From contig JBIQLO010000001.1 in NCBI GenBank assembly GCA_044464175.1, positions 1 to 62,412 on the forward strand: a DNA stretch of 62,412 nucleotides. The letters run 5' to 3'. Shown piece by piece: positions 40,882 to 62,412 of this stretch. Numbering within the stretch: the stretch's first letter is position 1; each line of letters opens with the position of its first letter. The position numbers and the translations under genes are program-made. This DNA is from Planctomycetaceae bacterium (lineage in GTDB: Bacteria; Planctomycetota; Phycisphaerae; Tepidisphaerales; Tepidisphaeraceae). Under the pieces are notes generated by a model. The model had not been told where the DNA came from. It saw only the letters and a program-made list of their open reading frames with translations, and did no database searches.

Positions 40882-40925
40882 TTGATTATCACTTGAATCC
40901 CCCATCCCTTTCACTCGGGACGGCC

Positions 40926-42742: not shown

Positions 42743-42801
42743 TGCCCCGGTCGGCCATTGAGCGGCGACGGAGCGAATGAAACCAGCACTGGAGATGATG
42801 G

Positions 42802-45684
42802 ATGAATCGACCTATCCGCCTGCTCTCTATCTGCGCGGCACTGATTGGCCTGCTGGTCCTGGCCTGGCCCGTGACCGCCGCCCCCCTCATAGTCGTCGAT
42901 GGCGGCCGGAGTGACTACACCATCGTGCGCCCCGAAAGGGCGCCCCAATCCATTCTGGACGCGGCGGAGGAATTGCAGCGGGACATCGCCCTGGCCACCG
43001 GAGCTAAACTCCCCATCACCCGGGAGGGGAGCCTGCTCACCGGCCCGTTCATCAGCCTGGGCGACACACCCCAGGCGCGCGCCGCCGGCTTCAGCGCCCA
43101 GGGCATGCCCGATGAGTCCTTCCGCATCGTCACCAAAGACGCCAATCTCTATATCTTTGGTCCCGACACGCCCGACGGCGGATGGACGAAGAACAACGGC
43201 GTCAGCCACGGCACCGCCAACGGCGTCTACACGTTTCTGGAAGACCAACTGGGGGTGCGCTGGCTGATGCCGGGCGAGCTGGGGCGGGATGTGCCGGCCC
43301 GATCCTCGGTTTCCATCGACATCATCGACCATACACAATCCCCCCGTTTCATCTGGCGGCGCCCGACCCACGTGTTTGATTACGCCGATGGCCCCCAGAC
43401 CCGAACCATTCTCCAGTGGCAGACGCATCAGCGCGTGGGTGAATACAACTGTTCCACGCGCTTTGGCTATGACCACAACTGGATTCAAACCGTTCCCCCG
43501 GAGCTGTACAAGACCCACCCCGACTGGTTCGCCATGGATGCCGCCGGAAAGCGCCCCGCTCCTTCCGGAAGACGATACAAGCTGGAAACGACCAACCCGG
43601 AACTGGTGCGCTACTTTGCCGATCAGGCCATCGCGCGACTGAAAAGTTCGCAGCGCCCCGGCACCTTTTCCCTCTCCCCCAGCGATGGCGGCGGCTGGAG
43701 CCAGAGCCCCCTGAGCAAAGCGCTCTACGATCCCAGCCCTTCGACCATTTTCGATCCCGAATCCCCGCCCGGCCGGCCGGGCGTCTCCTCGCTGGTGCTC
43801 AAGTGGTATCACGACGTGGCGCAGATCGTCGCCAAGGAATACCCCCAGGGCCGACTGGCCGGATACATCTACGCCGATTACCTCTACCCCCCGACCAAGC
43901 TCCAGATGAAGCTGCCGGACAACTTCACCCCGGTCATCGCTCCCAGCTTCGACTATGGCTATGGCCTTTACCGCCAACAGACGCAGGAGCGGTTCAAATA
44001 TGTCATGGATGCCTGGGCCAAAGTCGCGCCTCAAGACTGGTTCTATTACGACCTGCCCAACCAGTTGAACAAGCAGTATGACCCGGAGATCGGAGCGGGG
44101 AATTTCCCCGGCGCCACCGGCATCGTCACCCCGGCCGCCCCGGACATTCTCAATCTTGTCTTTTCCACGCTCGTCCGCGATCGCATCAAAGGAGCGATGA
44201 TCTACGGCGTCCCCTCCTGGAGCAGCGGGGCCATGTCCAATTACATCCTCGCCCAGATGATGTGGGACCCCTCCCGGGATGCCCATGCCGTGCAGCGGGA
44301 CTGGCTGGAGCGAGCCTACGGCCCGGAGGCCGGGGCGGTCATGGCGGATTTTTATCACAATCTCAACGGCTGGTTCAAGGCGTACTACCAGGAGCACCCG
44401 GATGTGAGCTACTTCCTGACCCGCGGCATGCTCAAGGACATCTACGCGGCCCATTACCCGGAGATGGAGAGGCGCTTCCTGCAAGCCCGGAACCGGCCGA
44501 TGACCGAGATTCAGCAACAGCGGTTGCAACTGATCGGGGACAACCTGATCGTCCTGCAATGGCGGCTGCGCAACGCCGGACTCCTGGTGCCCGAATTCAC
44601 CTCCACCCTCACCCGAAGCAATGAGCAGGTGATCGCCCTGATCGCCCGCCCTAACAAGGATTTTCCCCTCTTTCCCGGCTATATCCCTTCCGGGACCATC
44701 CCCGGGCCCAAACCCCCGCGATGGAAGGTGCATGCCGCCGCGGGAACGCCGCCACAATCTACCGGAGACCTGTCGGCACTGAACTCCAACACCTTTGTGA
44801 TCTTTGCGGCCCAGGAGACGCAGGTGCGCATTGTGCCGCGTCGAATCAGCCACGGGGCCTACTTTGCCGGATATGAAATCAAAGATGCGGCCGGCAAGGT
44901 GATTCGCAGCGGAATTTTCAACACCGGCACGCCGATTGTCTTTCCGGCCAAGGCAGGCACGGCCTATTACCTTTCCATCCCCCCGCGTAAGCCCGTCCAC
45001 TATGAGTTATCGATTGACAATGCCGCCATGGCCGAGGGTCGGCTGCGGGAGGATATCCTGACCCTGTATGCACCCCCCGCGCCGATTCTGGTCTTTAATG
45101 CGCCGGGGCATGCGCCAATCGGCGTCTTCGACAGGGAGGGCGCAGTTGTCCTCCAGAAGCCCTTCAGCGGAGCCGCCGGGCGGGCGGACATGTTGCGGGG
45201 CGGAGCCTACAAGGATGTGAAGGTGATCGGCAGCTTCGACCAGGGTTGGCGTTTCAGCCCCGACCCGAAGGACGAGTTGCTGAATCGCGGCGTCACGACC
45301 CCGGAGTTTGACGACAGCGGCTGGGCCACCCTCAGCGCCCTGGACTGGTGGCAAATGCAGGGATTCGAGGCATATCACGGCCCGGCATGGTACCGGATGA
45401 AGTTCACCGCGCCGCCGTTGGAAAAGGGGCGTTCGGTACGCCTCTATTTCGGCGGTGTGGACGGCAACGCCGAGGTCTACCTCAACGGCCGGAAAGTGGT
45501 CGTCCACACGCTGGGAAAGAACTACGAAGGGTGGGACCGCCCCTTCTCCAAGAGTGTGGCCGGCGCCCTCAAGGCCGGGGAGAACATCCTGGCGGTGAAG
45601 GTCACCAGCAAGAACAGCACCACCGCCAGCGGCATCTTCCGCGGTGTCAGCCTGCTGACGATGGTTCCCACCGGGAAAAAGTGA
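42802..45684 (+). CDS. Secreted DUF4838-type glycoside-hydrolase-like protein with a C-terminal GH2-type sugar-binding jelly-roll (paralog 2)
   Basis: Signal peptide MNRPIRLLSICAALIGLLVLAWPVTA. GTANGVYTFLEDQLGVRWLMPG motif. The C-terminal WYRMKFTAPP..VRLYFGGVDGNAEVYLNGRKV region resembles the GH2 N-terminal domain. Confidence 0.75.
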   Translation: MNRPIRLLSICAALIGLLVLAWPVTAAPLIVVDGGRSDYTIVRPERAPQSILDAAEELQRDIALATGAKLPITREGSLLTGPFISLGDTPQARAAGFSAQGMPDESFRIVTKDANLYIFGPDTPDGGWTKNNGVSHGTANGVYTFLEDQLGVRWLMPGELGRDVPARSSVSIDIIDHTQSPRFIWRRPTHVFDYADGPQTRTILQWQTHQRVGEYNCSTRFGYDHNWIQTVPPELYKTHPDWFAMDAAGKRPAPSGRRYKLETTNPELVRYFADQAIARLKSSQRPGTFSLSPSDGGGWSQSPLSKALYDPSPSTIFDPESPPGRPGVSSLVLKWYHDVAQIVAKEYPQGRLAGYIYADYLYPPTKLQMKLPDNFTPVIAPSFDYGYGLYRQQTQERFKYVMDAWAKVAPQDWFYYDLPNQLNKQYDPEIGAGNFPGATGIVTPAAPDILNLVFSTLVRDRIKGAMIYGVPSWSSGAMSNYILAQMMWDPSRDAHAVQRDWLERAYGPEAGAVMADFYHNLNGWFKAYYQEHPDVSYFLTRGMLKDIYAAHYPEMERRFLQARNRPMTEIQQQRLQLIGDNLIVLQWRLRNAGLLVPEFTSTLTRSNEQVIALIARPNKDFPLFPGYIPSGTIPGPKPPRWKVHAAAGTPPQSTGDLSALNSNTFVIFAAQETQVRIVPRRISHGAYFAGYEIKDAAGKVIRSGIFNTGTPIVFPAKAGTAYYLSIPPRKPVHYELSIDNAAMAEGRLREDILTLYAPPAPILVFNAPGHAPIGVFDREGAVVLQKPFSGAAGRADMLRGGAYKDVKVIGSFDQGWRFSPDPKDELLNRGVTTPEFDDSGWATLSALDWWQMQGFEAYHGPAWYRMKFTAPPLEKGRSVRLYFGGVDGNAEVYLNGRKVVVHTLGKNYEGWDRPFSKSVAGALKAGENILAVKVTSKNSTTASGIFRGVSLLTMVPTGKK

Positions 45685-45687
45685 TAC

Positions 45688-46911
45688 TCAGTGCGCCACC
45701 ACGCGGCTGATGGTGAAGATCGGCAGCAGCAGCGCCAGTGAGACACCGCCGATGATTGCCCCCATCACCACGATCATGATCGGCTCGATATACCGCGTGA
45801 GCTGGGCGATCCGTTCTTTCAGCTCCGTCTCGGCGTGCAGGGAGATTTGCTCCAGCACGAACGAGAGTTTGCCGCTCTTTTCGCCGCTGTGGATCATCTG
45901 CGCCACCGAACGCGGCACCAGCGGGCTGTCGAACAGCGGTTCGGAAAGCTGGCGTCCGGCCTCCAGCTTCCTGCCGCAATCGGTCCACAGGTCGCTGAAA
46001 TGGGAGTTGGGCGTGAGCTGCCCGGCCGTCTGAACGCACTCCATCAGGTTGACCCCCGCACCGGCCATCGTGCCGAGCATGCGCAGGCTTCGGGCCAGGT
46101 TCACATCCCGGAAGACCGGCCCTAGTATCGGCACCCGAAGCTGGACGGTGTGCCAGAAGCGCCGCCCCCCCGGAGTCTTGAGCCAAAACCACGCTGCAAA
46201 GACCACCCCCGCCACCCCCAGGGGTAGCACAATATAATGATGGACCAGGAACTGGCTGAACAACATGAGCACCTTCGTCGGAACCGGTAAGGCCGCCTTC
46301 TTCTGGGCATAGATAGCGGTGAACCGCGGCAGCACGAACGCCAGCAGGAAGATCGTCGTGCTGACGGCGAAGGCGAACATGATGGCCGGATAGGTCAGCG
46401 CGCCGCGGACCCGGCGGACAATCTCCTGTTCGTCGCGCAGGTAGGCCGCCGCGCGGGTCAGGAGCTTGCTCATCATGCCGGAGCGTTCGGAGGCGGTGAT
46501 CAAGGCGATGAACAGTTTCGGGAAGCTGCGCGGGTGGCGGGCCAGGGCACTGCTGAAATCGCTGCCGCTCTGCACCTGCTGGCAAAGATCTTCGACCAGT
46601 TGCTTGGTCTTGGGCTTATGCGCCTGGGTCGCGATGCACTCCAGCCCCTCCGAGAGCGTGACCCCGGTTTCCAACATGATCGACAATTGGGTGGCGATCT
46701 GGATGACCTCAGCGCGGGGGATGCGAATACCGCCGGCGCCGGCCGCATCGGCAGCCGACGCGGCCTGCCCCGCCGCTGCCGGGCGGATCGAGACGGGGTA
46801 CTTTCCATCCCCGCGCAGCATGCGGGCGACTTCCTGCGCGGACTCCCCCACCAGCACGCCGCTGGCCAGCAGGCCGGTGCCGTCCCGGGCGGTATAGGTA
46901 AATGCGGGCAT
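45688..46911 (-). CDS. Type II secretion / type IV pilus platform protein (GspF/PilC family)
   Basis: 407 aa with two T2SS-F repeats and three TM segments. Confidence 0.9.
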   Translation of the reverse strand: MPAFTYTARDGTGLLASGVLVGESAQEVARMLRGDGKYPVSIRPAAAGQAASAADAAGAGGIRIPRAEVIQIATQLSIMLETGVTLSEGLECIATQAHKPKTKQLVEDLCQQVQSGSDFSSALARHPRSFPKLFIALITASERSGMMSKLLTRAAAYLRDEQEIVRRVRGALTYPAIMFAFAVSTTIFLLAFVLPRFTAIYAQKKAALPVPTKVLMLFSQFLVHHYIVLPLGVAGVVFAAWFWLKTPGGRRFWHTVQLRVPILGPVFRDVNLARSLRMLGTMAGAGVNLMECVQTAGQLTPNSHFSDLWTDCGRKLEAGRQLSEPLFDSPLVPRSVAQMIHSGEKSGKLSFVLEQISLHAETELKERIAQLTRYIEPIMIVVMGAIIGGVSLALLLPIFTISRVVAH

Positions 46912-46936
46912 CTTCCTTCCCTTCCACGGCGGCGGA

Positions 46937-48640
46937 TCACGCCGTCACGCGGTAAACTTCCTCCATCGTCGTCACACCCTGGCCGACCTTCTCCAGCCCG
47001 TCACGGCGCAACGGATTCATGCCGATCTGCTCGGCCAGTTGCCGCAGCTCATTGAGCGGCGCCCCAGCACTGATCCGCTCGATCATGGCATCGTCCGGAA
47101 CAAGCAGCTCATACAGGCCCACCCGCCCGGAATAGCCCAGGTTGCGGCAACGCGGGCACCCCTTGGGATGGTAGATCGGCTCGACGGGCAGCCTGAACTT
47201 CTCGAACGTATGCTTCTCCTGGGGCGTGGGATCGGCCGACTTCTTGCAGGCCGGGCAGAGCTTGCGCACCAGCCGCTGGGCCAGCACGCCGCAGAGCGTC
47301 GCCCCGACCAGATAGGGCTCGATTCCGATGTTGAACAGCCGGGTCACAGCGCTGACTGCGTCATTGGTGTGCATGGTGGCGAACACCAGATGCCCGGTCA
47401 GGGCGGCCTGCGTGGCGATCCGGGCGGTTTCGCTGTCGCGGATCTCCCCGATCATCAGAACATCCGGGTCCTGCCGCAGGATGGAGCGGAGGGCATTGGC
47501 AAAGGTGAAGCCCACCTTCTCATTGACCTGAAACTGATTCACGCCGGTCAGCGCGTATTCAACCGGGTCCTCGACGGTGCAGATGTTGACATCGTCCCGG
47601 TTCAGCTCCTGAAGGACGGAGTAGAGCGTGGTGCTCTTGCCGCTGCCGGTGGGACCGGTCACCAGGACGATGCCATTGGGCTTGACGATGAGCTTTCGGA
47701 AGAGCTTGAGCGTGGCGTAGCCAAAGCCCAGTTTTTCCAGGTTCACGCTGGCCCGCTCATTGTCGATGATGCGGATCACGACCTTCTCGCCATGCTTGGC
47801 GGGCATCGTGCTGACTCGCAGGTCGATCGGCCGCTTGTCCATCATCACATGGATGCCGCCATCCTGGGGGAGCCGGCGCTCGGCTATGTCCAGGCCCGCC
47901 ATGATTTTGATGCGCGAGGCGACCGCCGCGTGCATGTGGTGCGGGGGCCGCAGCTTCTCGGCCAGACGCCCGTCGATTCGGCAGCGGACCCGCAGCACCT
48001 TGTCGCCCGGCTCGATGTGGATATCGCTAGCGCCATCCTTGACGGCGGTGTAGATGATGTAGTTGACCAGCTTGATGACCGGCGAATCTCCGGCGGCCTG
48101 CTCCAGCGAGGCGATGTCCTGCACCTGCTGCTGGATGAGGGTGAATTCCTCCGGCTTGACCTCCTCGATGATGTCGTCGATGACGAACACCTGGTCGTTG
48201 GGGAGGTACGCCTGGAGCGTGGCCTTGATGTCGCGACTGGTGGCGGCGACGACCTGGACGGTCTGACCCGAAAGCCTCTCAATCTCCTCGACCAGGAAGA
48301 CGTTGGCCGGCTCCGACACCGCGACGGTCAGGGTCTGCTCCACCCGGAACAGGGGCAGGACTTGGTGCTTTTCAAGAAACTCCTTGGGAAGAAGAGAGAT
48401 CGCCTTGGGATCGGCGATCCGCGGGCTGACGCGGGCATAGGGGACGCCATACGCCTGGGCCAGCACTTCGGTGATCTGATCCTCGGAGCAGAAGCGCATC
48501 TCAACCAGCACCTCGCCCAGAAGCTTCTGGTGGTTGCCGCGGCGCTGCTCCTCCAGCGCTTGGTCGAGCTGCTCCTGCTGGAGCAGCCCGCGGCTGATGA
48601 GCAGTTGGCCAAGAGGTTGTCGTTGAAGCGTGGCGGTCAT
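46937..48640 (-). CDS. GspE/PilB-family assembly ATPase with an MshEN-like N-terminal domain
   Basis: Walker A GPTGSGKST. Walker B region DVLMIGEIRD. Tetracysteine CPAC...CPRC. N-terminal LGQLLISRGLLQQEQLDQALEEQ. Confidence 0.9.
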   Translation of the reverse strand: MTATLQRQPLGQLLISRGLLQQEQLDQALEEQRRGNHQKLLGEVLVEMRFCSEDQITEVLAQAYGVPYARVSPRIADPKAISLLPKEFLEKHQVLPLFRVEQTLTVAVSEPANVFLVEEIERLSGQTVQVVAATSRDIKATLQAYLPNDQVFVIDDIIEEVKPEEFTLIQQQVQDIASLEQAAGDSPVIKLVNYIIYTAVKDGASDIHIEPGDKVLRVRCRIDGRLAEKLRPPHHMHAAVASRIKIMAGLDIAERRLPQDGGIHVMMDKRPIDLRVSTMPAKHGEKVVIRIIDNERASVNLEKLGFGYATLKLFRKLIVKPNGIVLVTGPTGSGKSTTLYSVLQELNRDDVNICTVEDPVEYALTGVNQFQVNEKVGFTFANALRSILRQDPDVLMIGEIRDSETARIATQAALTGHLVFATMHTNDAVSAVTRLFNIGIEPYLVGATLCGVLAQRLVRKLCPACKKSADPTPQEKHTFEKFRLPVEPIYHPKGCPRCRNLGYSGRVGLYELLVPDDAMIERISAGAPLNELRQLAEQIGMNPLRRDGLEKVGQGVTTMEEVYRVTA

Positions 48641-48746
48641 TCTCTTTGAGAAGACAGGAGGCGGCAGACAGAAGCCGGAACAGGCCTCGGGGATGCTCCC
48701 CTGCTCATTCCGTGTTCGATCCGCCGCATACCGGCTTCCTCTCCCT

Positions 48747-49085
48747 TTACCTCATTGTCTTCAGCGCCGACTCCAGGGTGTCGTGGCATTCGAACCGGTG
48801 GGCCAGGCGCGTGATTTCCAAAATCTTTTTGCAGTTCTCATCCAAGCCGCACAGTTTCAGCTGGCCAAACAGGTCCTCGGCCCGCCGTTTGACCCAAAGG
48901 AGCGTCTCCAGCCCTTCGGAATCAATAAAGGGACATTTTTCCAGGTCAACGACGAAATCGACAACATGTCGCTGGTCGATGCGCTCCTCCGCCGTCTGGC
49001 GCAGCAGCGGCGAGGCATCGGAAGACAGATCGCCTTCGATCGACGCCACGCAAATCTCGTTATAATCCTCGCATTTCACGCTCAT
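48747..49085 (-). CDS. STAS-domain protein (anti-sigma-factor-antagonist fold)
   Basis: 112 aa. VVDLEKCPFIDSEGLETLL motif typical of SpoIIAA/RsbV-like STAS proteins. Confidence 0.8.
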   Translation of the reverse strand: MSVKCEDYNEICVASIEGDLSSDASPLLRQTAEERIDQRHVVDFVVDLEKCPFIDSEGLETLLWVKRRAEDLFGQLKLCGLDENCKKILEITRLAHRFECHDTLESALKTMR

Positions 49086-49097
49086 GTCAGACTCGCT

Positions 49098-50774
49098 TCA
49101 GGCGGCGTTCATGGACCGGCGCTCCAGCAGCGGACGGCACTGGCGATGGTGGTCCTGCAACAGTGACCGCAATTGATCGACCGGGATCGACAGGAACACC
49201 TCCGCCAGGCGGGGATCGAACTGCGTGCCGGCGCAGCGGCGGATCTCGGTCAGGGCAGCCTCCACGGGCATCGCCTTGCGATAGGTCCGGCTGGAGGTCA
49301 TCGCGTCGAAGCAGTCGGCCAGGCAGATGATCCGCCCCATCAGGGGAATGTCCTCGCCGCCCAGACCGGCGGGATAACCCCGTCCGTCATAGCGCTCGTG
49401 ATGATGGAGAACCCCGGGGAGCAGATCGGCCACCTGTTTAACATCTTCCAAAATCCGAGCCCCGATAGCAGGATGTTTCTTGATCTGCTCAAACTCCTCG
49501 TCGGTTAGCTTGCCCGCCTTCTGGAGTACGGCCTCGGGAACGCCAATCTTGCCGACATCGTGCAGCAGCCCGGCCATATAGATGCGTTCGACCTGCTGCT
49601 CGCCCAGCCCGGCGGCAATGGCCAGCGTACGGCTGAGCAGCGCCACACGCTCGCTATGGCCGCAGGTGTAGGCATCCTTGGCGTCCACCGCACTGGTGAG
49701 GCTGTGGAGCAATCCCATCATCAGCCCATGCACATCCTCGAACAGGCGGGCATTTTCCAGATAGACCGCCGATTCATTGGCGATGGAGGTGAGCAGCTTG
49801 ACATCCGTGGAGTCAAAGTCGCCCTCCTGCTTGTCCAGGGCGAAGAGGCATCCCAGATGCTGCTCCTGGCGCTGCAGGGGCACCGCCAGCAGTTGGTTGG
49901 CGTACTCACCCAGCCAGGCAAAGTCCCGGTCGGCCGAAAGATTGTTGACCAGCAACGGATTGTTTCGCCGCGGCAGCATTTCCAAAAGCTGGGCGTCCAG
50001 TCTGGAGAGCGCCGCCGGGGGCAGGTTCAACGTTCCATGGAGCACGGGACCGCACTGGCAGAAGATCGAGCTGTCCAGGGCGACACTCATGCCGCCGACG
50101 CCCAGAACCTCCAGCACCTCGTTGCAGACCTGTTTGAAAAATTCACAGGCGCTGCGGTTGACCTTCATACCACTGGAAATCTGGTAGATGAGGGTCAGTT
50201 CCTCATAGGCGGAGGCGAGCTGCGTGGAAAGGCCATCCAACTCATGCTCGGATGTGCTCAGGCGAAGCTGGTCGTGGAGCATCTCCATCAGAAGCCGGCC
50301 CTGATGGCGCAGCGTCGGCTCGCCGAACGAGGGCAGCTTGTCCGCCTGCTGCTGGAGCCAGACGCCGTCGATCCCAAGTCGCGAGCAGAGGCGCACCACA
50401 TCCTCACCCAAACGGAAATCCTCGCCGACCGCCGCCAAAGCCAGCGTTCCGCAGCGCCGGGTCCGCTCATTCCAGGGGCAGGACGCCACGAGCATTCCCG
50501 GGACCATCCGGTGAATCGTGATGGACCCGTCGAGCGTCGCGGAGCCCGTCGAATTCAACTCGAGGCCTTCGACCTCGTTGTCCCGCAGCATTGGCAGGAC
50601 ATACTGCCGGAAGAGCGGCGCGGCCTCCCGATCATGCCAGGCCAGAATGCCTTCGGGGTTGAATAGCATCAGCAGGAGCCCGGCCGAGCGAAAGCGCTCC
50701 GCAAGGTTCATGAGAATCTCCACCGGAACACTCTGCTGAGCGGCGGCCTCGGTATTAAACATCGTACAAATCAT
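49098..50774 (-). CDS. GAF-domain / HD-GYP-domain protein (putative c-di-GMP phosphodiesterase)
   Basis: HSERVALLS...LLHDVGKIGVP...HHERYDGRGYP matches the HD-GYP signature. A GAF-like region and a long unassigned N-terminal domain lie upstream. Confidence 0.85.
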   Translation of the reverse strand: MICTMFNTEAAAQQSVPVEILMNLAERFRSAGLLLMLFNPEGILAWHDREAAPLFRQYVLPMLRDNEVEGLELNSTGSATLDGSITIHRMVPGMLVASCPWNERTRRCGTLALAAVGEDFRLGEDVVRLCSRLGIDGVWLQQQADKLPSFGEPTLRHQGRLLMEMLHDQLRLSTSEHELDGLSTQLASAYEELTLIYQISSGMKVNRSACEFFKQVCNEVLEVLGVGGMSVALDSSIFCQCGPVLHGTLNLPPAALSRLDAQLLEMLPRRNNPLLVNNLSADRDFAWLGEYANQLLAVPLQRQEQHLGCLFALDKQEGDFDSTDVKLLTSIANESAVYLENARLFEDVHGLMMGLLHSLTSAVDAKDAYTCGHSERVALLSRTLAIAAGLGEQQVERIYMAGLLHDVGKIGVPEAVLQKAGKLTDEEFEQIKKHPAIGARILEDVKQVADLLPGVLHHHERYDGRGYPAGLGGEDIPLMGRIICLADCFDAMTSSRTYRKAMPVEAALTEIRRCAGTQFDPRLAEVFLSIPVDQLRSLLQDHHRQCRPLLERRSMNAA

Positions 50775-50838
50775 GTGTCGTACCCACTTTTGTCACAAAA
50801 CGCGGCCAAACACCGCCGCGCCGGCGTTTCCGAGTCGC

Positions 50839-51225
50839 TCAGGCGACGGCGGCACCGTCCAGAATTTCGTTGACGGTCGCCAGCAGTTGCCGTGGGCTGA
50901 ACGGTTTGGAGATCATGCGGAGGATTCCGCTCTCCTCGGTGTCCCGCTCATCCAGGTGATAGCCGCGCGCCGTGAGCATGATGGCCGGCAACGACGCGGT
51001 GGACGGGTCGCTGCGCAACCGATGGCACAATTCCAAGCCCGACAGCAGGGGCATGTGGTAATCAGTGATAAGCAGGTCAGGATGCTCAGCAACCGCCAGA
51101 TTCAGCGCTTCCTGGCCGTCATGGGCAGTCAGGACATTGAAGCCGGCATTGCGCAGCTTCAATGAAACGACGTTCAGAATGTGGGATTCATCATCAGCTA
51201 CAAGAATGGTCTTCGATCCGCTCAT
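50839..51225 (-). CDS. Stand-alone response regulator receiver protein
   Basis: ILVADDES...LLITDYHMP...SKPF receiver signature. No output domain. Confidence 0.9.
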   Translation of the reverse strand: MSGSKTILVADDESHILNVVSLKLRNAGFNVLTAHDGQEALNLAVAEHPDLLITDYHMPLLSGLELCHRLRSDPSTASLPAIMLTARGYHLDERDTEESGILRMISKPFSPRQLLATVNEILDGAAVA

Positions 51226-51304
51226 TTTTCCTCTCCGTAAATTCGGTTCTCCTCACGCCGCCTCGAACGCAGGCCAGCAGGCCAGGGGCGGCGATCCGCC
51301 GGTC

Positions 51305-52720
51305 TCAAGTCATCTCCAGTTCAAACCCGAATGTGCTTCCCCGGCCCGGTTCGCTTTCCACGAACATGCGGCCATGGTGCACGTTTTCGACAATGTGCCG
51401 CACCAGTGACAATCCCAGGCCGGTTCCCTTGGCCATATGGTTGTTGGCGCTGACTCTATAGAACTTATCGAACACAAAGGGGAGGTCCTTGTGTGAAATC
51501 CCGACCCCCGTGTCGGAAATCCGGATAATGATCTTCTTTCCGGCCTCGTCCACGCTGGCCTCGGCGGTGACGGTTCCTCCTTCGGGCGTGTACTTGATGG
51601 CGTTGGACAGGAGGTTGAGGACCGCCTGGTAGAGCATGTCCTTGTCGGCCAGCGTCTGATAAAAGACGGCCGTCAGCTTCTGCTCAAGATGGATGTTCTT
51701 GGCCTTGGCCTGTGGGACCATCACCTCCAGGGCCTCGGTGATGACCACGGCGGGGCTGAGCGGAGCTTTGTTGATCTTGACCAGCCCCGACTCGATGCGG
51801 GAGATATTCAGGATGTTGTCGATGAGGCGCCCCAGCCGATTGGCCTCATTCTGGATGATATCGTAGAATTCACGGCGGGTCTGCTCATCGGCGGCCTCGC
51901 CGTCCACCAGCATCTCCACATAGGCCTTAATGCTGGCCAGGGGCGTGCGGAGCTCGTGGGAGACATTGGAGACGAAGTCGGTCTTCATCTGAGCGACTTC
52001 CTTCTCGCGGGTCATGTCGTGCAGCACGGCGACAACGCCGGCGGGCTGGTCGGCGGCATCGGCGACTGCCGACAGGGTGAGTTTGAACGTCCTGCCCCCC
52101 CGCTCTGCGCCGACGGTATGCTCCACGACCCGGCGGGTGTTGGCGCTGCCGCTTTGACGCACCTCCCGGATCAGCTCAATCATTGTCTCGTCGCGCAATA
52201 CCTGATCGATGGGCCGCCGCTGCGCGGCCGAGAGATTGAAATCCCACACCCGGGCGGCGGCATCGTTAGCCAGCACCAGCTCATCAAAGGAATTGGTCAC
52301 CAGCACGGCGTCGGAGATGCTGTACAGGATGGCCCGGGCATGCTGCCGCTCGGCCGTGGCGACCTTGTACTGAATCTCCATCTCCCGCGCCTGGATTTTG
52401 GATTTCTCGGCGTTCTGCTGCAGCAGCTCGGTCAGACGATTGATGCCCTCGGTCAGAGGTCGCCAATCCGCGCTCTCGGCGGAGAGGCTGCCTGGCTGAT
52501 CCGCCTCCGCCAATTCGTTGATCTGCCGGACGAAACGCCGATGCTCGATCGTCCCGTCCACAGCGCCGATCAGGCCGATTCCGCCTACCAGGAACAGCAG
52601 CAGAATGCCGGGAAGCCAATGGCCCGGCAGATTACCGGACCAGAGGTCCGGCCCCAGATGAACCGCTGCAGCGGCCATGAATCCGGCGATCAGAATCGAT
52701 ATGACCCATCCACGGCGCAT
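51305..52720 (-). CDS. Sensor histidine kinase (2 TM, PAS, HisKA, HATPase_c)
   Basis: H-box HELRTPLASIKAY and G-box GTGLGLSLV. Two N-terminal TM helices. Confidence 0.9.
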   Translation of the reverse strand: MRRGWVISILIAGFMAAAAVHLGPDLWSGNLPGHWLPGILLLFLVGGIGLIGAVDGTIEHRRFVRQINELAEADQPGSLSAESADWRPLTEGINRLTELLQQNAEKSKIQAREMEIQYKVATAERQHARAILYSISDAVLVTNSFDELVLANDAAARVWDFNLSAAQRRPIDQVLRDETMIELIREVRQSGSANTRRVVEHTVGAERGGRTFKLTLSAVADAADQPAGVVAVLHDMTREKEVAQMKTDFVSNVSHELRTPLASIKAYVEMLVDGEAADEQTRREFYDIIQNEANRLGRLIDNILNISRIESGLVKINKAPLSPAVVITEALEVMVPQAKAKNIHLEQKLTAVFYQTLADKDMLYQAVLNLLSNAIKYTPEGGTVTAEASVDEAGKKIIIRISDTGVGISHKDLPFVFDKFYRVSANNHMAKGTGLGLSLVRHIVENVHHGRMFVESEPGRGSTFGFELEMT

Positions 52721-52789
52721 TCATTCTCCTTCAGCTTTCCAGCCCACGGTCTTATGGGATCTTCAGTTCAGCGACGCCCGCCGGCCCTT

Positions 52790-53977
52790 CTATTCCACGC
52801 TGGCCAACAGGCGAGTCGTCAGCTCATCGCCCGGCCGCAGCTTCAGGGCGGCGTCGTACCACTGGCGGGCCTTCTGGGGGTGGCCCATCTTCTGCAGGAC
52901 GTAGCCGACCATGCACAGGCTGGTTGAATCCTTGGGATCAGCACGACAGGCGCTCTGGAAAGAGGTCAGGGCCTTGGGCAGATTCTGCTCTCGCAAACAG
53001 AGATAACCCATCAGCAAGTTGGCCTGCCCGGACTGGGGCGCCAAGCTCAGGGCACGCTCCAGCGAGAGCCGAGCCCGAGCCAAGTCCTTCAATTCCAGCG
53101 CGGCCTGTGCAAGGCCGGTCCATCCATTGGCATTGCCTGGCTCCAGACGAACGGCCGTTTGAAAGTGATCACGGGCATCGTGCGCCCGGCCGGCGCGCAA
53201 AAGGCATTCACCCAGCGCCAACTGCAGGTCCGGCCGCTTTTGCCGGGTCTCATCGTTCATCAGCCGATCGAAAACCGGGAGGGCCTGTCGATACTGCTTG
53301 TCGAAGTAGAGCGCCAGGGCCAGGTGTTCGCGAATGTTCTGATCGTCGTCGGCGAAAATGCTCGCCTGGCGCAAGATGGTCGCCGCCTCGGCATAGCGGC
53401 CCTGGCTCATGAGAATGGCGCCCACCGCGTCGCGCAGGGCGGCGCTGTGCTCAAAATACGCGAGTTTGGATTGCAGCAGTGCCAGCGCCTCACCCGACCG
53501 GTCCATCGCCACCAGCATCTCCGCCCGTGCCAGGACGTAGGCCGGCTCCGTGGGCGCCTTTTCCGAAGCGCTGGCGTAGCACTGCAGGGCCTCCTGTGGC
53601 TTTTGCCATCGCTGGTAAACGACGCCGCTGTAGTAGTCGGCCTCGGGATTTTTCGGGTCCAGCTTTCCGGCTTCGGCCAATTCGCTCTGGGCCAGCTCCA
53701 ACTGCCCCTCCTCCAGCGCCAGCCGCGCCGAGAGAATACGCAGGGGAGCGCTGGCCGGGGTCAGGGTTATGGCCTGATCCAGCGTCTTGCGGGCCTGTCC
53801 GAATTCACCGCTGCGGTATTGGCGCTCCGCCAGGCTCGCCAGCACTGAGGAGCGGGTCTGGTTCCATCGCTTGACCGCTTCCTCCTTGGGCTTCTGTCGG
53901 TTGGACTGGCAGGCGCTGAGGCAGAGGCCAATCACGGCCAGGGCGGCGGTCCATCGGAATTGATGCATAAATCGCAT
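52790..53977 (-). CDS. TPR-repeat lipoprotein, PilF/PilW-like secretin pilotin candidate
   Basis: Lipobox LCLSAC, followed by repeated TPR units throughout. Immediately downstream of the secretin gene. Start is 53977 or 54001. Confidence 0.7.
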   Translation of the reverse strand: MRFMHQFRWTAALAVIGLCLSACQSNRQKPKEEAVKRWNQTRSSVLASLAERQYRSGEFGQARKTLDQAITLTPASAPLRILSARLALEEGQLELAQSELAEAGKLDPKNPEADYYSGVVYQRWQKPQEALQCYASASEKAPTEPAYVLARAEMLVAMDRSGEALALLQSKLAYFEHSAALRDAVGAILMSQGRYAEAATILRQASIFADDDQNIREHLALALYFDKQYRQALPVFDRLMNDETRQKRPDLQLALGECLLRAGRAHDARDHFQTAVRLEPGNANGWTGLAQAALELKDLARARLSLERALSLAPQSGQANLLMGYLCLREQNLPKALTSFQSACRADPKDSTSLCMVGYVLQKMGHPQKARQWYDAALKLRPGDELTTRLLASVE

Positions 53978-54088
53978 GAGAACACTCGCTTTGCTTGTCA
54001 TCTGCCGCCGGCTCCCTGTGCTCCTGAATGGCTCAACATCCGGACGCATGCACAGGGAACCGGCGACCGGCCATCCGTCTAACCTGAC

Positions 54089-56077: not shown

Positions 56078-56164
56078 TCCTGGGATGCTGTTGCCGGTGG
56101 TCAGCCATGCCGACTAACAAGGCGGCCTTCGCTGAACCTGGGCACCATCGGTCGGGCATCGTCG

Positions 56165-56863
56165 CTAGTTCATCAGGATTTCGAGCTTGATGCCCTCACG
56201 CTCGACGATAATCCGCCGCGGCTCGATTTCGAGGACGCGGAACGACGCGACAACGTCTCCCTCTTTCACCAGCTCGCCGTTGACCATCGCGCGGGGTTGG
56301 CGCCCCATCAGCGTGGTCTGCAGTTTCAACTGAGCGGCCTGAAGTCGCAGATTCTCGATGAGAATCCGTCGCTCTTTGATCTGATCGGCCTTTGCGGCCA
56401 TGGACTTTGCAAGCTGATCCCAAAACCCATCCCCGCTGGGGGCGCGCAGGGTTTTGGCAATCCGACTTCCGTCCTGCGGGTAATAATCGAGCTTAATGGC
56501 GAACAGGTCCCGTTCCAGGGGGGCAATCGGCGAGGCCAGCCAGCTTCGCAGGGCTTCGGCGGCGGCATTGTGCTTCGCCGTCATGTCCATGGCCGAAGCA
56601 GCGGGCTTCGCCACCATGGCCGCGGAGGCGATTTTGGGCGCATCCGCCCCGTTGGACAGTACCCGTGCCCAGGCGACGCCCAGAATGATCAGCAGCACCC
56701 CCAGGAACAACGTCTTCCTGGGATCTGCGCGAATCATGGCGGCGACCCTGTTCCACCAGATGATGACATTGGAATCGTTCATGCTGTTCGCTCCGTGTCG
56801 CGGGCCGCAATCATCGGCGGACGCCGGGATTCCGGGCGGACCGGCATTCCGGCCACCACTCAC
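56165..56863 (-). CDS. Membrane-anchored PilP/GspC-like protein
   Basis: One TM helix (LFLGVLLIILGVAW) and a C-terminal beta-domain AMVNGELVKEGDVVASFRVLEIEPRRIIVE. The GTG at 56863 overlaps the pilO stop; the alternative ATG is at 56782. Confidence 0.5.
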   Translation of the reverse strand: MSGGRNAGPPGIPASADDCGPRHGANSMNDSNVIIWWNRVAAMIRADPRKTLFLGVLLIILGVAWARVLSNGADAPKIASAAMVAKPAASAMDMTAKHNAAAEALRSWLASPIAPLERDLFAIKLDYYPQDGSRIAKTLRAPSGDGFWDQLAKSMAAKADQIKERRILIENLRLQAAQLKLQTTLMGRQPRAMVNGELVKEGDVVASFRVLEIEPRRIIVEREGIKLEILMN

Positions 56864-59298: not shown

Positions 59299-59313
59299 GT
59301 CACCGCTCGCCTC

Positions 59314-59907
59314 CTAAGTGCCGCTAACGGAAAGGTTGCCGGTATATGGCTCCACCTTCACTGTCAGCGACATCTGTCCGCTCTTGACCACTACACTGCC
59401 GGCAACCAGCTCCTGCAGTTGCGATCCGGCCGGCCGGGTCGGGTCGTACGACCAAGGACACCCCATCTCGTCGAACACGATGGTTGACTTCCCGTCAAAA
59501 CTCACCGTCCCGATTTGGCAGCTGGCCAAACCCGAGGTGCCGCCGGAACCGAATTTGGTCGTGTAGTCTCCCTGGCTAACGGGGTGGCGAATCGGAGTGG
59601 TCAGCGGCGCTGCATCATAGATACCGTAGCTTTGCGATGAGGCGTCGAATTTGACATAGTGCGGTTTCTGCGTCGTGATCGCGAGATTTTGCGCATACAT
59701 CAAATCACTCATCACCACCCTGGCGGCCGCGGCGGCATTCAGGTCGTCCCGGGAGCTGATCTGTGGGAGCACCATCGCTGACACAATCCCGAGAATGACC
59801 ACCACCGTGAGGATTTCCACCAATGTAAAGCCACCACGGACGGAACCTCGGGCATTGCCTGGATCTGTTGAATCCAGGTGCGCGATTCGGGTTGTCTTTA
59901 GTTCCAT
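59314..59907 (-). CDS. Pseudopilin with a prepilin N-terminal cleavage/methylation domain
   Basis: GGFTLVEILTVVVILGIVSAMVLP. ATG at 59907 (the track GTG is at 59937). Confidence 0.8.
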   Translation of the reverse strand: MELKTTRIAHLDSTDPGNARGSVRGGFTLVEILTVVVILGIVSAMVLPQISSRDDLNAAAAARVVMSDLMYAQNLAITTQKPHYVKFDASSQSYGIYDAAPLTTPIRHPVSQGDYTTKFGSGGTSGLASCQIGTVSFDGKSTIVFDEMGCPWSYDPTRPAGSQLQELVAGSVVVKSGQMSLTVKVEPYTGNLSVSGT

Positions 59908-59940
59908 CACAACCTCCGGTCCACGGCGGGCGGACACTTA

Positions 59941-60186
59941 CTATTTCTTTTCATCGGGCTTCGCGACGCGGACCTGAAGGTTGCCTCCCTCTAAAATTCC
60001 GATCAATTTGTCCAGCTTCTGATTGGTCTCCTTCTGCTGATCCACCATCTGGACGATCCGGTCGCCGGTATCGCCGAAAGCCGCCTGGGCGGGCGCGGGA
60101 TAAAACGCACCGCTTGACCACTGCCCCAGCAGAATGAGCCCCTGCAGTACCAGCACAATCGTCAGAATCCTCATCTCCGATTTCAT
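59941..60186 (-). CDS. Small membrane-anchored or secreted protein, unknown function
   Basis: 81 aa. N-terminal hydrophobic helix MRILTIVLVLQGLILLG, then a charged helical tail. Packed tightly between pseudopilin genes. Confidence 0.45.
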   Translation of the reverse strand: MKSEMRILTIVLVLQGLILLGQWSSGAFYPAPAQAAFGDTGDRIVQMVDQQKETNQKLDKLIGILEGGNLQVRVAKPDEKK

Positions 60187-60217
60187 GGATGCTCCTTGTC
60201 AGTAGCCGTTGATTTTC

Positions 60218-61204
60218 TCAATTCCAGCTCAGGACCTTTACCAGAGGGCGGAATTTCAATGTTCCCTCGGAAGTCACGCCGCCGCTTCCGACCATGACGG
60301 GGCCGATAACCTTCATCACTGATCCCTCGCCGCCCCCCCCGCCGCCCAGCAGGCCTCCGAGCAGTCCCCCGAGGCCGCTGGGGGTATCGCCGATCTGGGT
60401 CTTTACCCAGAGCCCCCCCTCGACCGTCGCCTCCGAATCATCATCCGGCAGCAGCTTTCCCCCCACCACCACCGCCGCCGGCCAGTTTCCCGAGACGATC
60501 TGTTCGCGGGTTGCGGTGATCAGGGAGCCGGAGTTCTTAACCTTCAGGTCGCCGCACACGACAAGGATGCCGCGAATCACGGTGTTTCGGAGGGTGGCCG
60601 TGCCGTCGGTCCAGAAAATGCCGGTGGGAGAATCCGCCGGCCCGTAGACTTTGTCCTGGAGATCGCACGGCAGCTCCGTGGCGTGCGTTTTGAGCCAGGT
60701 GGGGTCGAGCATGGATGGACTGCTCAGCGCGATGGAATGGTTCCCAAGCAGGCCGTTGACGATCCCGCCCACGAGATTGAGCAGCCCGCCCAGCAGGCCC
60801 GAATCCGTGGCACTGGTGATCATAACAGGGTAATTCAGTTGCACCTGCGCTTCGACCGAGCGCTGAGCCCCGTCCACCGTGGCGGTAGAGGAGATCCGAT
60901 AGATGTCACTTCCCAGCGATTGGCAGGAGATGCTGATCGTCCCCGGGACCGAAGCGCCGAGCGAGATGCCGCTACGTCCCCCCCACTGCCCATTGGTTTG
61001 CTGGAGATGCCACATCGCCAGTTGCACACCCGAATCGGCCAGATATTCCGCCGAGGCGCTGCGCATGACATTGCCGCCGGCCTGAGCCTGCAGTTGCGTG
61101 GCCGCCAGCAGGGCATAACCCAGCACCGCCACCAAGCCCACCACACTTACCACCAGCACCAGCGCCATCCCACGTGGCGACTTAGTTCTGCGGTGTCGTA
61201 GCAT
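60218..61204 (-). CDS. PilX/GspK-like minor pseudopilin
   Basis: RGMALVLVVSVVGLVAVLGYALL N-terminus without the F-T-L-x-E motif (PilX_N-like). Gly-rich C-terminal stretch. Start is uncertain (61204, 61168 or 61225). Confidence 0.55.
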   Translation of the reverse strand: MLRHRRTKSPRGMALVLVVSVVGLVAVLGYALLAATQLQAQAGGNVMRSASAEYLADSGVQLAMWHLQQTNGQWGGRSGISLGASVPGTISISCQSLGSDIYRISSTATVDGAQRSVEAQVQLNYPVMITSATDSGLLGGLLNLVGGIVNGLLGNHSIALSSPSMLDPTWLKTHATELPCDLQDKVYGPADSPTGIFWTDGTATLRNTVIRGILVVCGDLKVKNSGSLITATREQIVSGNWPAAVVVGGKLLPDDDSEATVEGGLWVKTQIGDTPSGLGGLLGGLLGGGGGGEGSVMKVIGPVMVGSGGVTSEGTLKFRPLVKVLSWN

Positions 61205-61943
61205 TGCGAAGGGTTGCATTGCCATAGCTCACCTCCTTCTGCCCGTCCTGCTCAAGCACAATCGTGAATTCCACGCTGGGACGACCGTTGATGTCACTAG
61301 GATTTCGGGATGAAAACTTCGCGGCGGCCACATTGGTGGCGAGCATCTCACTGGTCAAAAAAGTCGCCCCTGAGACCTTCAAGTTTTGCGGCATGGTAGA
61401 TGTGTTAAACTGAGCAGAACTAACCGATATGCGGGCTCGAATTGATTGAATTGCCGAGAGCGTACCTATGGATCGATACAACTTGATTGTCAAACTCGAC
61501 GGATCGTATTCCAGCCATCCCAATTCTCCCAACTCCAATTTGTCATCTTGGAATTGAACATTTCCACCCACGTTCATTCCGTCCATCAGCCACAGCATCA
61601 CCCCCGCCGTCTGTGTGCTGGAGGTATCAAGCGACCCAGACGAGATCACGCCGACGCTCCGGGCATTTGAAATAATGTGTTGAATCCGATGGCTGATCAC
61701 CGTCTGTGTCACCGGGAGGGACTGCGGCGACTCGGCCCCCTGCCAGTTTTGGCCGGCGGCCGCCGTGAAGGCGGCCAAGGCTCCCGCCACCAAGCTCACC
61801 ACCACCATTCCCATTATCAATTCAAGGAGGGTAAAAGCGGCCCGACAGGATATCTGCAAGGGTGCCCCCCAGGTTTGAAGGAAATACACAAACCGTCCCC
61901 TCCGAGCATTACCCTTTTTTGCTTTTACATCGTGGTGGTTCAT
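61182..61943 (-). CDS. Pseudopilin with a prepilin-type N-terminus
   Basis: RAAFTLLELIMGMVVVSLVAGAL. The ATG at 61943 overlaps the upstream stop (ATGA). Confidence 0.7.
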   Translation of the reverse strand: MNHHDVKAKKGNARRGRFVYFLQTWGAPLQISCRAAFTLLELIMGMVVVSLVAGALAAFTAAAGQNWQGAESPQSLPVTQTVISHRIQHIISNARSVGVISSGSLDTSSTQTAGVMLWLMDGMNVGGNVQFQDDKLELGELGWLEYDPSSLTIKLYRSIGTLSAIQSIRARISVSSAQFNTSTMPQNLKVSGATFLTSEMLATNVAAAKFSSRNPSDINGRPSVEFTIVLEQDGQKEVSYGNATLRNATTPQN

Positions 61944-62412
61944 CGTCGCACCGCCCGCGTCGCCAGGCGCGACAACTGGACCGTTTTTCCGCTCGGCTCC
62001 GTTACCGTCACCGTGATCAGAGCGCAATCCGTTTTGGGTGGCGCCCCTGGATAGCCCAACGTCACATATTGCACATTTACCTTCCGGGCATATGTGCCGC
62101 CGGAAAGGGTGATGGACGCCCCCTGCTGGTCCTTCAGATTGGCCGTCGTGTCGGTGTAGCCGGCATAATCACTGATGTAGTCATAATTGGCCCGGATGTC
62201 CGTAGCGTCATGCCCCAGGAGCACACCATCGGTGTCGGGATATGCGAACGGCCGGGCCATGATCTCCTCCATCAGCTCCCGCGCCAGCCCCACGGCCGTC
62301 AGATCCTGCCGGGATGCGGAGGATTGCTGCTGATTGGCAAGCATTCCCCCCGCCATGGCCGCCGCCGCCAACGCCAGCACGACCGAGGCGATCAAGCCTT
62401 CGGCCAGAGTAA
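61940..62412 (-). CDS. Pseudopilin (GspI/J-like), 5' end cut by window edge
   Basis: Reading is open to the window edge. The translated edge gives TLAEGLIASVVLALAAAAMAG, a prepilin-type hydrophobic N-terminus. Confidence 0.7.
   Translation of the reverse strand, partial: TLAEGLIASVVLALAAAAMAGGMLANQQQSSASRQDLTAVGLARELMEEIMARPFAYPDTDGVLLGHDATDIRANYDYISDYAGYTDTTANLKDQQGASITLSGGTYARKVNVQYVTLGYPGAPPKTDCALITVTVTEPSGKTVQLSRLATRAVRR

Follow-up and report, generated by a model that had tools for sequence, protein, structure and literature searches.

The 62,412-nucleotide (nt) stretch of DNA analysed here, called the window in its whole length, is the beginning of contig JBIQLO010000001.1 (GenBank assembly GCA_044464175.1) from a Planctomycetaceae bacterium. 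Its minus strand carries a type IV pilus-like operon, and inside this operon, directly before the gene for the assembly ATPase, lie four genes of signal transduction. They encode a PAS histidine kinase, a stand-alone receiver, a protein with GAF and HD-GYP domains, and a small STAS protein. What are four signalling genes doing inside a pilus operon? Are they there by chance, or do they form a control module for the motor encoded beside them? And if they do, would they work through cyclic di-GMP (c-di-GMP) as second messenger, or through contacts between proteins?

How c-di-GMP signalling finds specific targets amid many synthases and hydrolases is an open question. Local coupling of an enzyme to its effector is the leading idea, and there are few clear cases. 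Here a phosphodiesterase, a likely effector ATPase, a two-component input and a STAS protein are kept in one operon, which makes the partners explicit and directly testable. An earlier reading of this DNA (the sequence-only reading) had proposed that these genes make up a self-contained circuit, in which kinase and receiver tune local c-di-GMP through the HD-GYP protein and so gate the ATPase, with the STAS protein possibly acting directly on the ATPase and not on a sigma-factor pathway.

We find that the cassette is inherited together with the pilus machine and is conserved across many Phycisphaerae lineages. That it is a dedicated, machine-linked control module for the extension motor of a type IVa pilus (T4aP)-like system is a reading to which we give an even chance.

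Four signalling genes before the motor gene

The operon is one string of genes running from about position 62395 down to 45688, as read from open reading frames (ORFs), translations, and matches to Pfam and NCBIfam. In order, it encodes minor pilins, PilM, PilN, PilO and PilP, a secretin, a TPR protein, the PAS kinase, the receiver, the sensor-GAF-HD-GYP protein, the STAS protein, an MshEN ATPase and PilC/GspF. The four same-strand genes that had been placed between the secretin and TPR genes on one side and the GspE and GspF genes on the other were all found at those coordinates and with the domains assigned to them: the membrane-anchored PAS histidine kinase (51305-52720, minus strand, as is every gene of the operon; 471 amino acids (aa)), the CheY-like receiver (50839-51225; 128 aa), the putative sensor phosphodiesterase with GAF and HD-GYP domains (49098-50774; 558 aa) and the single-domain STAS protein of the SpoIIAA/RsbV type (48747-49085; 112 aa). 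The PilB/GspE-type assembly ATPase (46937-48640; 567 aa) follows. Gaps computed from the ORF coordinates are 69 nt between the TPR protein and the kinase, 79 nt between kinase and receiver, 64 nt between receiver and HD-GYP protein, 12 nt between HD-GYP protein and STAS protein, 106 nt between STAS protein and ATPase, and 25 nt between ATPase and PilC/GspF, and they match the 12 to 106 nt reported earlier. No RsbW/SpoIIAB-type kinase (HATPase_c_2), PP2C/SpoIIE, GGDEF or EAL protein was found among the window genes scanned, which took in all but a few small ORFs; the lack of an anti-sigma kinase or PP2C partner for the STAS protein that the sequence-only reading had noted is thus borne out for these genes.

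Two start codons come into question for the HD-GYP gene. In the public gene call it begins at M22 (537 aa), and with this start the gap to the receiver gene would be 127 nt. Since the residues upstream of M22 are conserved in orthologue alignments (start-codon region 50711-50774), the 558-aa start at 50774 is more likely. A scan of 45000-62412 for promoters and terminators gave 4 promoters and 15 terminators, about as many sites as shuffled sequence (3.5 and 12.1). With counts no higher than these, and with a tool that does not cover planctomycete promoters, it was uninformative on the operon boundaries and was set aside.

Conservation of the gene order

A protein search with the HD-GYP protein returned more than 120 full-length orthologues at about 60% identity, and those that were named came from Tepidisphaeraceae or Phycisphaerales. 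A species-level scan, with one genome per species and an alignment of the family-specific N-terminal 324 residues of the HD-GYP protein, gave 79 loci. All are Tepidisphaerales-like, and they include cultured Fontivita pretiosa and metagenome-assembled genomes (MAGs) assigned to Humisphaera. The gene order at these loci was read by tblastn, for which the twelve window proteins served as queries. In nearly all of the 79 it is pilM-N-O-P, secretin, TPR, kinase, receiver, HD-GYP, STAS, ATPase, PilC. The kinase and receiver genes are directly upstream of the HD-GYP gene in 75 of the 76 assessable loci, and in 65 of 72 the STAS gene follows directly downstream, together with the ATPase gene wherever the contig goes on. 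The genes that flank the operon, including those downstream of PilC/GspF, differ among relatives; the conserved unit is therefore the operon itself.

The same 12-gene order was found in more distant relatives. These came from a metagenome scan seeded with a three-sequence full-length alignment of distant members, and from MAG proteins looked up under the names 'Phycisphaerae bacterium' and 'Planctomycetota bacterium'. Both the metagenome contigs and the named Phycisphaerae and Planctomycetota MAGs have the order, at identities to the window proteins of about 38-45% for the HD-GYP protein, 32-42% for the STAS protein, about 60% for the ATPase and 38-40% for PilC. In 31 distant loci the HD-GYP gene is followed within 600 nt downstream by the STAS gene. 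Of the 80 metagenome loci, about 50 hold GAF-HD-GYP paralogues that have neither the N-terminal domain nor a pilus context.

The arrangement thus recurs at about 110 independent loci, which places it far beyond chance. Chance adjacency, and a global phosphodiesterase that is merely located here, are both rejected by the depth of the conserved gene order. The comparison of kinase-receiver-HD-GYP-STAS-GspE order in related genomes had been named as the first check on the proposed circuit, and its outcome was very strongly positive, upstream, downstream and in the distant loci. Because the gene order is conserved so strongly, the four genes form a functional unit with the pilus motor.

There are also loci that depart from this order. 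At L061 the STAS-ATPase pair is inverted and about 5 kb off, and at L080 the HD-GYP and STAS genes are separated by an inserted gene; at both, the STAS gene is still directly upstream of the ATPase gene. Neither STAS nor ATPase gene was found nearby at L066 and possibly on a few short contigs. A further group (L015, L018, L023, L049, L054, L063 and L069) has divergent STAS (30-50% identity) and ATPase (45-57%) proteins and no PilC gene after the ATPase gene. Are these a second, paralogous system? No genome with two complete copies was found among the species-level genomes, and the sole genome with two HD-GYP matches looks like one gene split by a contig break. Two paralogous systems per genome were rejected on this ground, and the divergent group, with its altered STAS and ATPase proteins and missing PilC, looks like a sub-lineage of the same system.

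The kinase and the receiver

At its N-terminus the kinase has, as read from the translation, two hydrophobic segments joined by a very short loop; cytoplasmic PAS, HisKA (75.5 bits) and HATPase_c (99.6 bits) domains follow. This architecture is PhoR/PnpS-like, and the NCBIfam models that fit best, PnpS and PhoR, both stay below cut-off. In 54 orthologues the H-box HELRTPL is invariant, as are the N (N-x-x-K-Y-T), G1 (D-x-G-x-G) and G2 (G-T-G-L-G-L) boxes. Among the four signalling proteins, the receiver shows the highest conservation, with about 75% identity. In every one of 77 orthologues the residues D11, D12, D55 and K107 are kept, and T85 is either T or S. By the kinase boxes, the receiver pocket residues and the adjacency of their genes (75 of 76 assessable loci), the two proteins qualify as a two-component pair. 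The best family match of the receiver is the PhoB receiver, below cut-off, as are PnpS and PhoR for the kinase. Judged by these matches the pair may derive from a phosphate-sensing system, a possible hint at the input signal.

In Pfam the receiver matches Response_reg only (82.7 bits). Having no output domain, it must act through contact with a protein. Pilus genes also surround a kinase and a response regulator in the PilS/PilR systems of Pseudomonas, Myxococcus and Geobacter, where the genes are next to pilB/pilC. PilR is a sigma-54 activator with a DNA-binding domain, and it controls pilin transcription. Unlike PilR, the 128-aa receiver of the window has neither a sigma-54 activator domain nor a DNA-binding domain, and transcriptional control of the PilS/PilR type was rejected for this reason.

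The HD-GYP protein

The HD-GYP protein is comprised of an N-terminal PocR-like sensor of PAS/GAF fold, a long helix, a GAF domain, a second long helix and the HD-GYP catalytic domain (HD/HD_5, 137.6 bits). The residues of a class II HD-GYP are present. In the 558-aa numbering they are H373 (in GHSERV), H405-D406, K409, H434, H458-H459-E460, the GYP of HHERYDGRGYP, and D487 (in LADCFDAM), and they align with those of PmGH (4MCW) and V-cGAP3 (5Z7C). Across 54-73 orthologues the HD, HHE and GYP residues and the metal ligands vary little or not at all (72-73 of 73). This argues for real catalysis, presumably by a cyclic-dinucleotide phosphodiesterase. An AlphaFold model of the full protein (predicted local distance difference test (pLDDT) 79.3) has 4MCW as its top Foldseek match (E = 1.6e-19), followed by tandem-GAF phosphodiesterases. 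The GAF-helix-HD-GYP portion is common to the window protein and to the PmGH family of GAF-HD-GYP enzymes (Persephonella marina PmGH, Tlr0485), which is its precedent (bioRxiv 10.1101/2021.11.05.467447). The window protein differs from PmGH in its extra N-terminal PocR-like sensor and in a Tyr at a metal-ligand position that is discussed below.

Which cyclic dinucleotide would such an enzyme degrade? By sequence, the best match of solved structure is Vibrio cholerae V-cGAP3 (5Z7C), a phosphodiesterase of 3'3'-cGAMP (cyclic GMP-AMP), over the whole catalytic domain (E = 5.9e-46), and VDAKDAYTCGHSERV of the window protein is nearly identical to VDAKSPYTAGHSERV in V-cGAP3. At one N-terminal acidic metal-ligand position of PmGH the window protein has, as V-cGAP3 does, a Tyr. 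We take this position to be that of E185, the third-metal ligand of PmGH, and a binuclear metal site is then more likely in the window protein. Weak binding of cGAMP by MshEN domains has been described (PMC5013675). The HD-GYP protein could, then, be a V-cGAP-like cGAMP phosphodiesterase, and the messenger 3'3'-cGAMP or a combination of cGAMP and c-di-GMP. We consider this very unlikely. PmGH, which is a c-di-GMP enzyme, comes almost as close by sequence (E = 6.1e-41, aligned over 200 residues) and ranks first by fold. A cGAMP synthase gene is lacking in the neighbourhood, and V-cGAP-type enzymes also act on c-di-GMP.

The N-terminal domain had no meaningful direct Pfam match in the 20 family members scanned. 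The N-domain of distant orthologues passes the Pfam PocR model (PF10114) with 26-41 bits against a cut-off of 23.9, and a profile-profile comparison by hhalign joins the window-type and distant domains at 95% probability (E = 3.6e-8). Modelled alone, it is an alpha/beta sensor domain (pLDDT 85.4) whose Foldseek matches are weak and GAF/PAS-like, with no E-value <=0.001. Among 1.84 billion representative proteins the domain makes up 81 clusters, some of them with members only 24-35% identical in the sensor domain, and every full-length member has the same architecture; the domain thus occurs almost only in the PocR-like-GAF-HD-GYP family. The distant PocR-like domains (P0279, P0208, P0216, P0270, P0283 and P0170; alignment A6) have an invariant C-x3-C-x5-C and, besides it, one more conserved Cys, a possible site for a metal or for redox chemistry. 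The equivalent in the window family (window 50400-50711) is a variable loop with no Cys and with low model confidence.

The ATPase N-domain

The N-domain of the ATPase has the MshEN/GSPII fold. It matches Pfam MshEN at 69.6 bits (cut-off 23.1), and phmmer relates it to the solved N-domains of PilF, PilB and MshE with E-values from 1.9e-29 to 5.3e-15. The core matches T2SSE at 456.6 bits, and the protein scores alike on the NCBIfam models for PilB (614.5 bits) and GspE (613.3 bits), both below cut-off. MshEN domains gate type IV pilus (T4P) ATPases via c-di-GMP, and their consensus is two tandem 24-residue motifs, RLGxx(L/V/I)(L/V/I)xxG(L/V/I)(L/V/I)xxxxLxxxLxxQ (PMC5013675). Motif I of the window ATPase, PLGQLLISRGLLQQEQLDQALEEQ, fits this consensus everywhere except at R1, where it has Pro. 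In motif II, LLGEVLVEMRFCSEDQITEVLAQA, three consensus residues are lost: R1 is replaced by Leu, G10 by Arg (in this subfamily) and Q24 by Ala. Both halves retain the hydrophobic residues of the motif, L2, G3, L6/L7, L17/I17 and L21, and the spacer between the motifs is 7 residues long, as in Geobacter PilB. Motif I starts with K-P-L-G, and so does the 53-residue NF053729 module in the c-di-GMP-binding PilF construct 294-482, GSPII-C (PMC12002112).

The ATPase also passes NF053729, the model of an MshE-related c-di-GMP motif (57.3 bits, cut-off 38). In a control scan with this model the window ATPase scored 62.3 bits. The c-di-GMP binders PilF GSPII-B and GSPII-C scored 63.1 and 83.8, Geobacter PilB, taken for its canonical motifs only, 67.9, and the non-binder GSPII-A 54.9. 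Since PilF GSPII-A, a proven non-binder, also passes (PMC12002112), the model was rejected as a discriminator of c-di-GMP binding.

What would the altered motif II mean for binding? In MshE, mutations of the hydrophobic motif residues lower the affinity for c-di-GMP more than 10-fold, and changes of Arg9 and Gln32 less than 5-fold (PMC5013675). The hydrophobic residues kept in the window ATPase, and its K-P-L-G start, speak for binding. In PilF GSPII-A, the loss of R1 and Q24 in motif II accompanies the loss of c-di-GMP binding; restoring the consensus in motif II did not regain it, and sequence alone was insufficient to predict binding (PMC12002112). Binding of c-di-GMP by the window ATPase is likewise not to be inferred from its sequence.

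Gene spacing and rate covariation

Over about 65-75 loci, the median gap is 38 nt between kinase and receiver, 109 nt between receiver and HD-GYP protein, 18 nt between HD-GYP and STAS proteins, 43 nt between STAS protein and ATPase, and 66 nt between ATPase and PilC. The HD-GYP-STAS gap is the shortest, and 70% of these gaps are 30 nt or less.

Covariation of evolutionary rates was analysed in the mirror-tree style for 37 taxa, with pairwise distances correlated after the mean of all other parts had been regressed out. The highest residual correlation, 0.56 (bootstrap 0.41-0.65), is that of the HD-GYP protein's N-domain with the ATPase N-domain. The STAS protein correlates most strongly with the HD-GYP catalytic domain (0.47), and at 0.34 with the ATPase N-domain. 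Values for other pairs are 0.44 (kinase and ATPase core), 0.43 (PilC and secretin) and 0.34 (receiver and HD-GYP N-domain). As positive controls, the expected partners TPR protein and secretin reached 0.46, PilB core and PilC 0.29, and kinase and receiver 0.24. This pattern would fit, weakly, a complex with contacts between phosphodiesterase and ATPase N-domain and between receiver and sensor domain, and with a STAS protein that touches both the phosphodiesterase and the ATPase N-domain. A four-taxon 'deep' subset gave noise, and the mirror-tree result was set aside as firm evidence and is used as a hint only.

Could the module work by contact only? The MshEN N-domain might have lost c-di-GMP binding and become a docking surface for the phospho-receiver, the STAS protein and an HD-GYP protein that serves as scaffold or 'trigger enzyme', and hydrolysis of c-di-GMP would then feed the global pool or report the enzyme's own state. 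Such a change of role would agree with a motif II that has degenerated throughout the family at R1 and Q24, and in the window's subfamily also at G10, and with the top residual covariation, which joins the HD-GYP sensor domain to the ATPase N-domain. It fits poorly with the hydrophobic residues, which are kept in both halves of the domain and are those that matter most in MshE (PMC5013675), and with HD-GYP catalytic residues whose near-invariance speaks for an enzyme at work. We therefore hold a contact-only module to be doubtful.

The STAS protein

The STAS protein matches Pfam STAS at 48.6 bits and passes TIGR00377, the anti-sigma-factor antagonist model, with 58.0 bits against a cut-off of 53.45. 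Its Ser56, in F-I-D-S-E-G-L-E (D-S-x-G-L), is found in all 70 orthologues and also in the deep-branching groups, and presumably occupies the position of Ser58 in SpoIIAA. Both features are those of a conventional anti-sigma antagonist, which would be served by an RsbW-type kinase and a PP2C elsewhere in the genome and would control transcription, for example of the pilin genes; the invariant Ser56 leaves such an unlinked kinase possible. Against this, neither the scanned window genes nor, in five relatives, the 10 kb on either side include a HATPase_c_2, SpoIIE/PP2C or conserved sigma-factor gene. A partner-switching kinase just outside the window, which the sequence-only reading had named as evidence that would count against it, was therefore not seen in those five relatives over that distance. 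In addition, the STAS gene sits between the HD-GYP and ATPase genes and goes with the ATPase gene in the rearranged loci L061 and L080. A conserved Ser/Thr is also found at the STAS-ATPase interface of MlaB and MlaF, with no known phosphorylation (PMC7367683). On balance we think partner switching unlikely here.

If the STAS protein acts within the operon, what would it act on? The sequence-only reading had suggested the ATPase. That suggestion agrees with the broken loci, in which the STAS gene stays with the ATPase gene; the tightest gap, at a median of 18 nt, and the strongest covariation point instead to the HD-GYP protein. Action on the ATPase and action on the HD-GYP enzyme are two equally live options, and both are plausible.

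STAS proteins of this kind have been described outside sigma-factor control. MlaB binds and regulates the ABC ATPase MlaF, with a conserved Thr at the interface (PMC7367683), and HsbA acts on the diguanylate cyclase HsbD, which links a partner switch to a c-di-GMP enzyme (PMC5085249). Like MlaB, HsbA and SypA of Vibrio fischeri, the window STAS protein is small and single-domain with a conserved Ser/Thr, and it is encoded beside both an ATPase and a c-di-GMP enzyme. It differs from all three in its candidate partners, a PilB-type secretion ATPase and an HD-GYP phosphodiesterase, and from HsbA and SypA in that no HsbR- or SypE-type kinase/phosphatase partner is adjacent. Neither a STAS protein with a PilB-type ATPase nor one with an HD-GYP phosphodiesterase was found in the literature searched.

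A proposed mechanism

For a dedicated control module we propose the following course of events. The membrane-anchored PAS kinase would phosphorylate the stand-alone receiver. The phospho-receiver, together with ligands of the PocR-like and GAF domains, would set the activity of the HD-GYP phosphodiesterase, and this would break down c-di-GMP locally, beside the PilB-type ATPase. There the MshEN N-domain would be the nucleotide receptor or a docking site. The STAS protein would be a stoichiometric adaptor or regulator coupling the phosphodiesterase to the ATPase N-domain, with the invariant Ser56 in the contact surface or serving as a phospho-switch. Of this scheme, the genes themselves, their deeply conserved order, the intact catalytic residues and phospho-sites and the sensor-domain folds have been shown; the substrate, c-di-GMP binding by the ATPase, the sign of the regulation and who binds whom are what we infer. 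A more specific form, which we offer tentatively and as somewhat improbable, is that the STAS protein is a kinase-independent adaptor clamping the HD-GYP phosphodiesterase onto the MshEN domain of the ATPase, where it would make a 'local sink' that is opened and closed by kinase and receiver.

How much of the circuit first proposed is left? The line from kinase and receiver through the HD-GYP protein to the ATPase is partly supported by the conserved gene order and by intact active and phospho-sites, and is weakened by the missing synthase and the degenerate motif II of the ATPase. That the circuit is self-contained was not borne out: a degrading enzyme is present, and there is no diguanylate cyclase in the operon or among the window genes scanned. 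Because of this, the involvement of c-di-GMP is drawn from the HD-GYP and MshEN assignments alone.

The absent cyclase is one of several points that weigh against the proposed mechanism. Another is the ATPase itself, whose motif II is without R1, G10 and Q24 and whose motif model does not separate binders from the non-binder GSPII-A. The closest solved HD-GYP by sequence is the 3'3'-cGAMP phosphodiesterase 5Z7C, and the substrate is for that reason not settled. Covariation is confounded by shared phylogeny, the distances are not independent, and domain pairs within one protein are not consistently high. Finally, an invariant Ser56 is equally expected for a classical phospho-regulated anti-sigma antagonist.

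Comparison with known systems

Among known systems, those closest to the window ATPase are the MshE and PilB-type ATPases (V. cholerae MshE, P. aeruginosa PA14_29490 and T. thermophilus PilF), with which it shares the family, the succession of MshEN and T2SSE, and a motif I with its hydrophobic core. In contrast to these c-di-GMP-gated ATPases, it has the reduced motif II, and its binding of c-di-GMP is conjectural. The window also differs in that the phosphodiesterase gene is two genes upstream of the ATPase gene in the same operon; in the MshEN systems described to date, the c-di-GMP enzymes are, to our knowledge, encoded elsewhere.

A kinase, a receiver and an HD-GYP domain are also tied to type IV pilus function in RpfC/RpfG of Xanthomonas. 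RpfC is a sensor kinase and RpfG a REC-HD-GYP response regulator, and the pair influences pilus motility. In the window, by comparison, receiver and HD-GYP are separate proteins, the HD-GYP protein has PocR-like and GAF sensors of its own, the genes lie within the pilus operon, and there is a STAS protein in addition.

Each single element of the cassette thus has precedents. The sequence-only reading had not recognised the arrangement from described T4P or type II secretion systems, and a full-text literature search (STAS, HD-GYP, PilB/GspE, type IV pili, Planctomycetes) likewise found no description of it. The four-gene combination, its place inside a pilus operon directly before the motor gene, a STAS protein in a pilus context and the PocR-like-GAF-HD-GYP architecture all appear to be undescribed.

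The remainder of the operon and of the window

The operon begins with pilin-like genes, for minor pilins or pseudopilins with N-terminal methylation motifs (N_methyl matches; 59314..62395), and it extends past the window end on this side. The last of them encodes a 207-aa GspH-like protein (59314-59937), whose equivalent in relatives matches GspH, PF12019. There follow PilM (58033-59298; Pfam PilM_2), PilN (57429 to about 58040; Pfam PilN), PilO (56860-57432; Pfam PilO), a PilP-like protein with a weak T2SSB match (56165-56863) and a secretin of the PilQ/GspD family (54089-56077; Pfam and NCBIfam). Directly upstream of the kinase is the TPR protein (52790-54049; Pfam and NCBIfam), a PilF/PilW/Tgl-like candidate pilotin. 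The last gene of the operon encodes the PilC/GspF inner-membrane platform (45688-46911; Pfam T2SSF).

Is this machine a pilus or a type II secretion system? Of the parts expected in T4aP, PilM, PilN, PilO, a secretin, a PilB-like ATPase and a PilC-like platform are present, and a major pilin could lie beyond the window end. The ATPase scores on the PilB and GspE models do not separate the two kinds of machine. A PilT-like ATPase is absent from the window. In some distant relatives, one is encoded between the PilB-type ATPase and PilC (L164, 14018-15079, 353 aa), with partial tblastn matches at the same place in L092 (about 14122-14505) and L094 (about 5470-5835). Because of these PilT-like genes, a retractile type IVa pilus is favoured over a type II secretion system, and the comparison suggests that such a pilus was the ancestral machine.

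The window has a G+C content of 63%, and its closest protein relatives place it in Tepidisphaerales (Phycisphaerae, Planctomycetota). A three-gene cassette is present twice, in inverted orientation, at 18175-22554 (minus strand) and 40893-45684 (plus strand). It encodes a LacI-family regulator, a DUF1559 protein with a pilin-like N-terminal methylation motif, and a large protein of DUF4838/glycoside-hydrolase-like type (803 aa in one copy, 960 aa in the other), and the second copy (40893-45684) borders directly on the end of the pilus operon. A type IV filament system could have the pilin-like DUF1559 proteins as substrates. A flagellar cluster that includes genes for a rod protein, FliE, FliF, FliG and FliH (33092-38075, minus strand) is about 8 kb from the pilus operon, a proximity that is not conserved in relatives, where the flanking genes differ. 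Positions 1-11518 (plus strand) hold a block for polysaccharide and lipid biosynthesis with epimerases/dehydratases, three or four glycosyltransferases, a methyltransferase, a phosphatidylserine decarboxylase and a CDP-alcohol phosphatidyltransferase. In a 735-aa ORF of this region (793-3000, plus strand) the epimerase domain is confined to the C-terminal half, after 360 unassigned residues.

Implications

If the proposed mechanism is true, control by STAS proteins would extend to an ATPase of the secretion superfamily or to an HD-GYP enzyme. Were the STAS protein to clamp the phosphodiesterase onto the motor, it would be the first STAS-regulated type IV pilus motor and the first STAS/HD-GYP pair, and a genetically obvious instance of local c-di-GMP signalling. 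For the planctomycetes, in whose ecology attachment to surfaces is important, the module would offer a first handle on pilus regulation, and there are cultured relatives, Fontivita, Humisphaera and Tepidisphaera.

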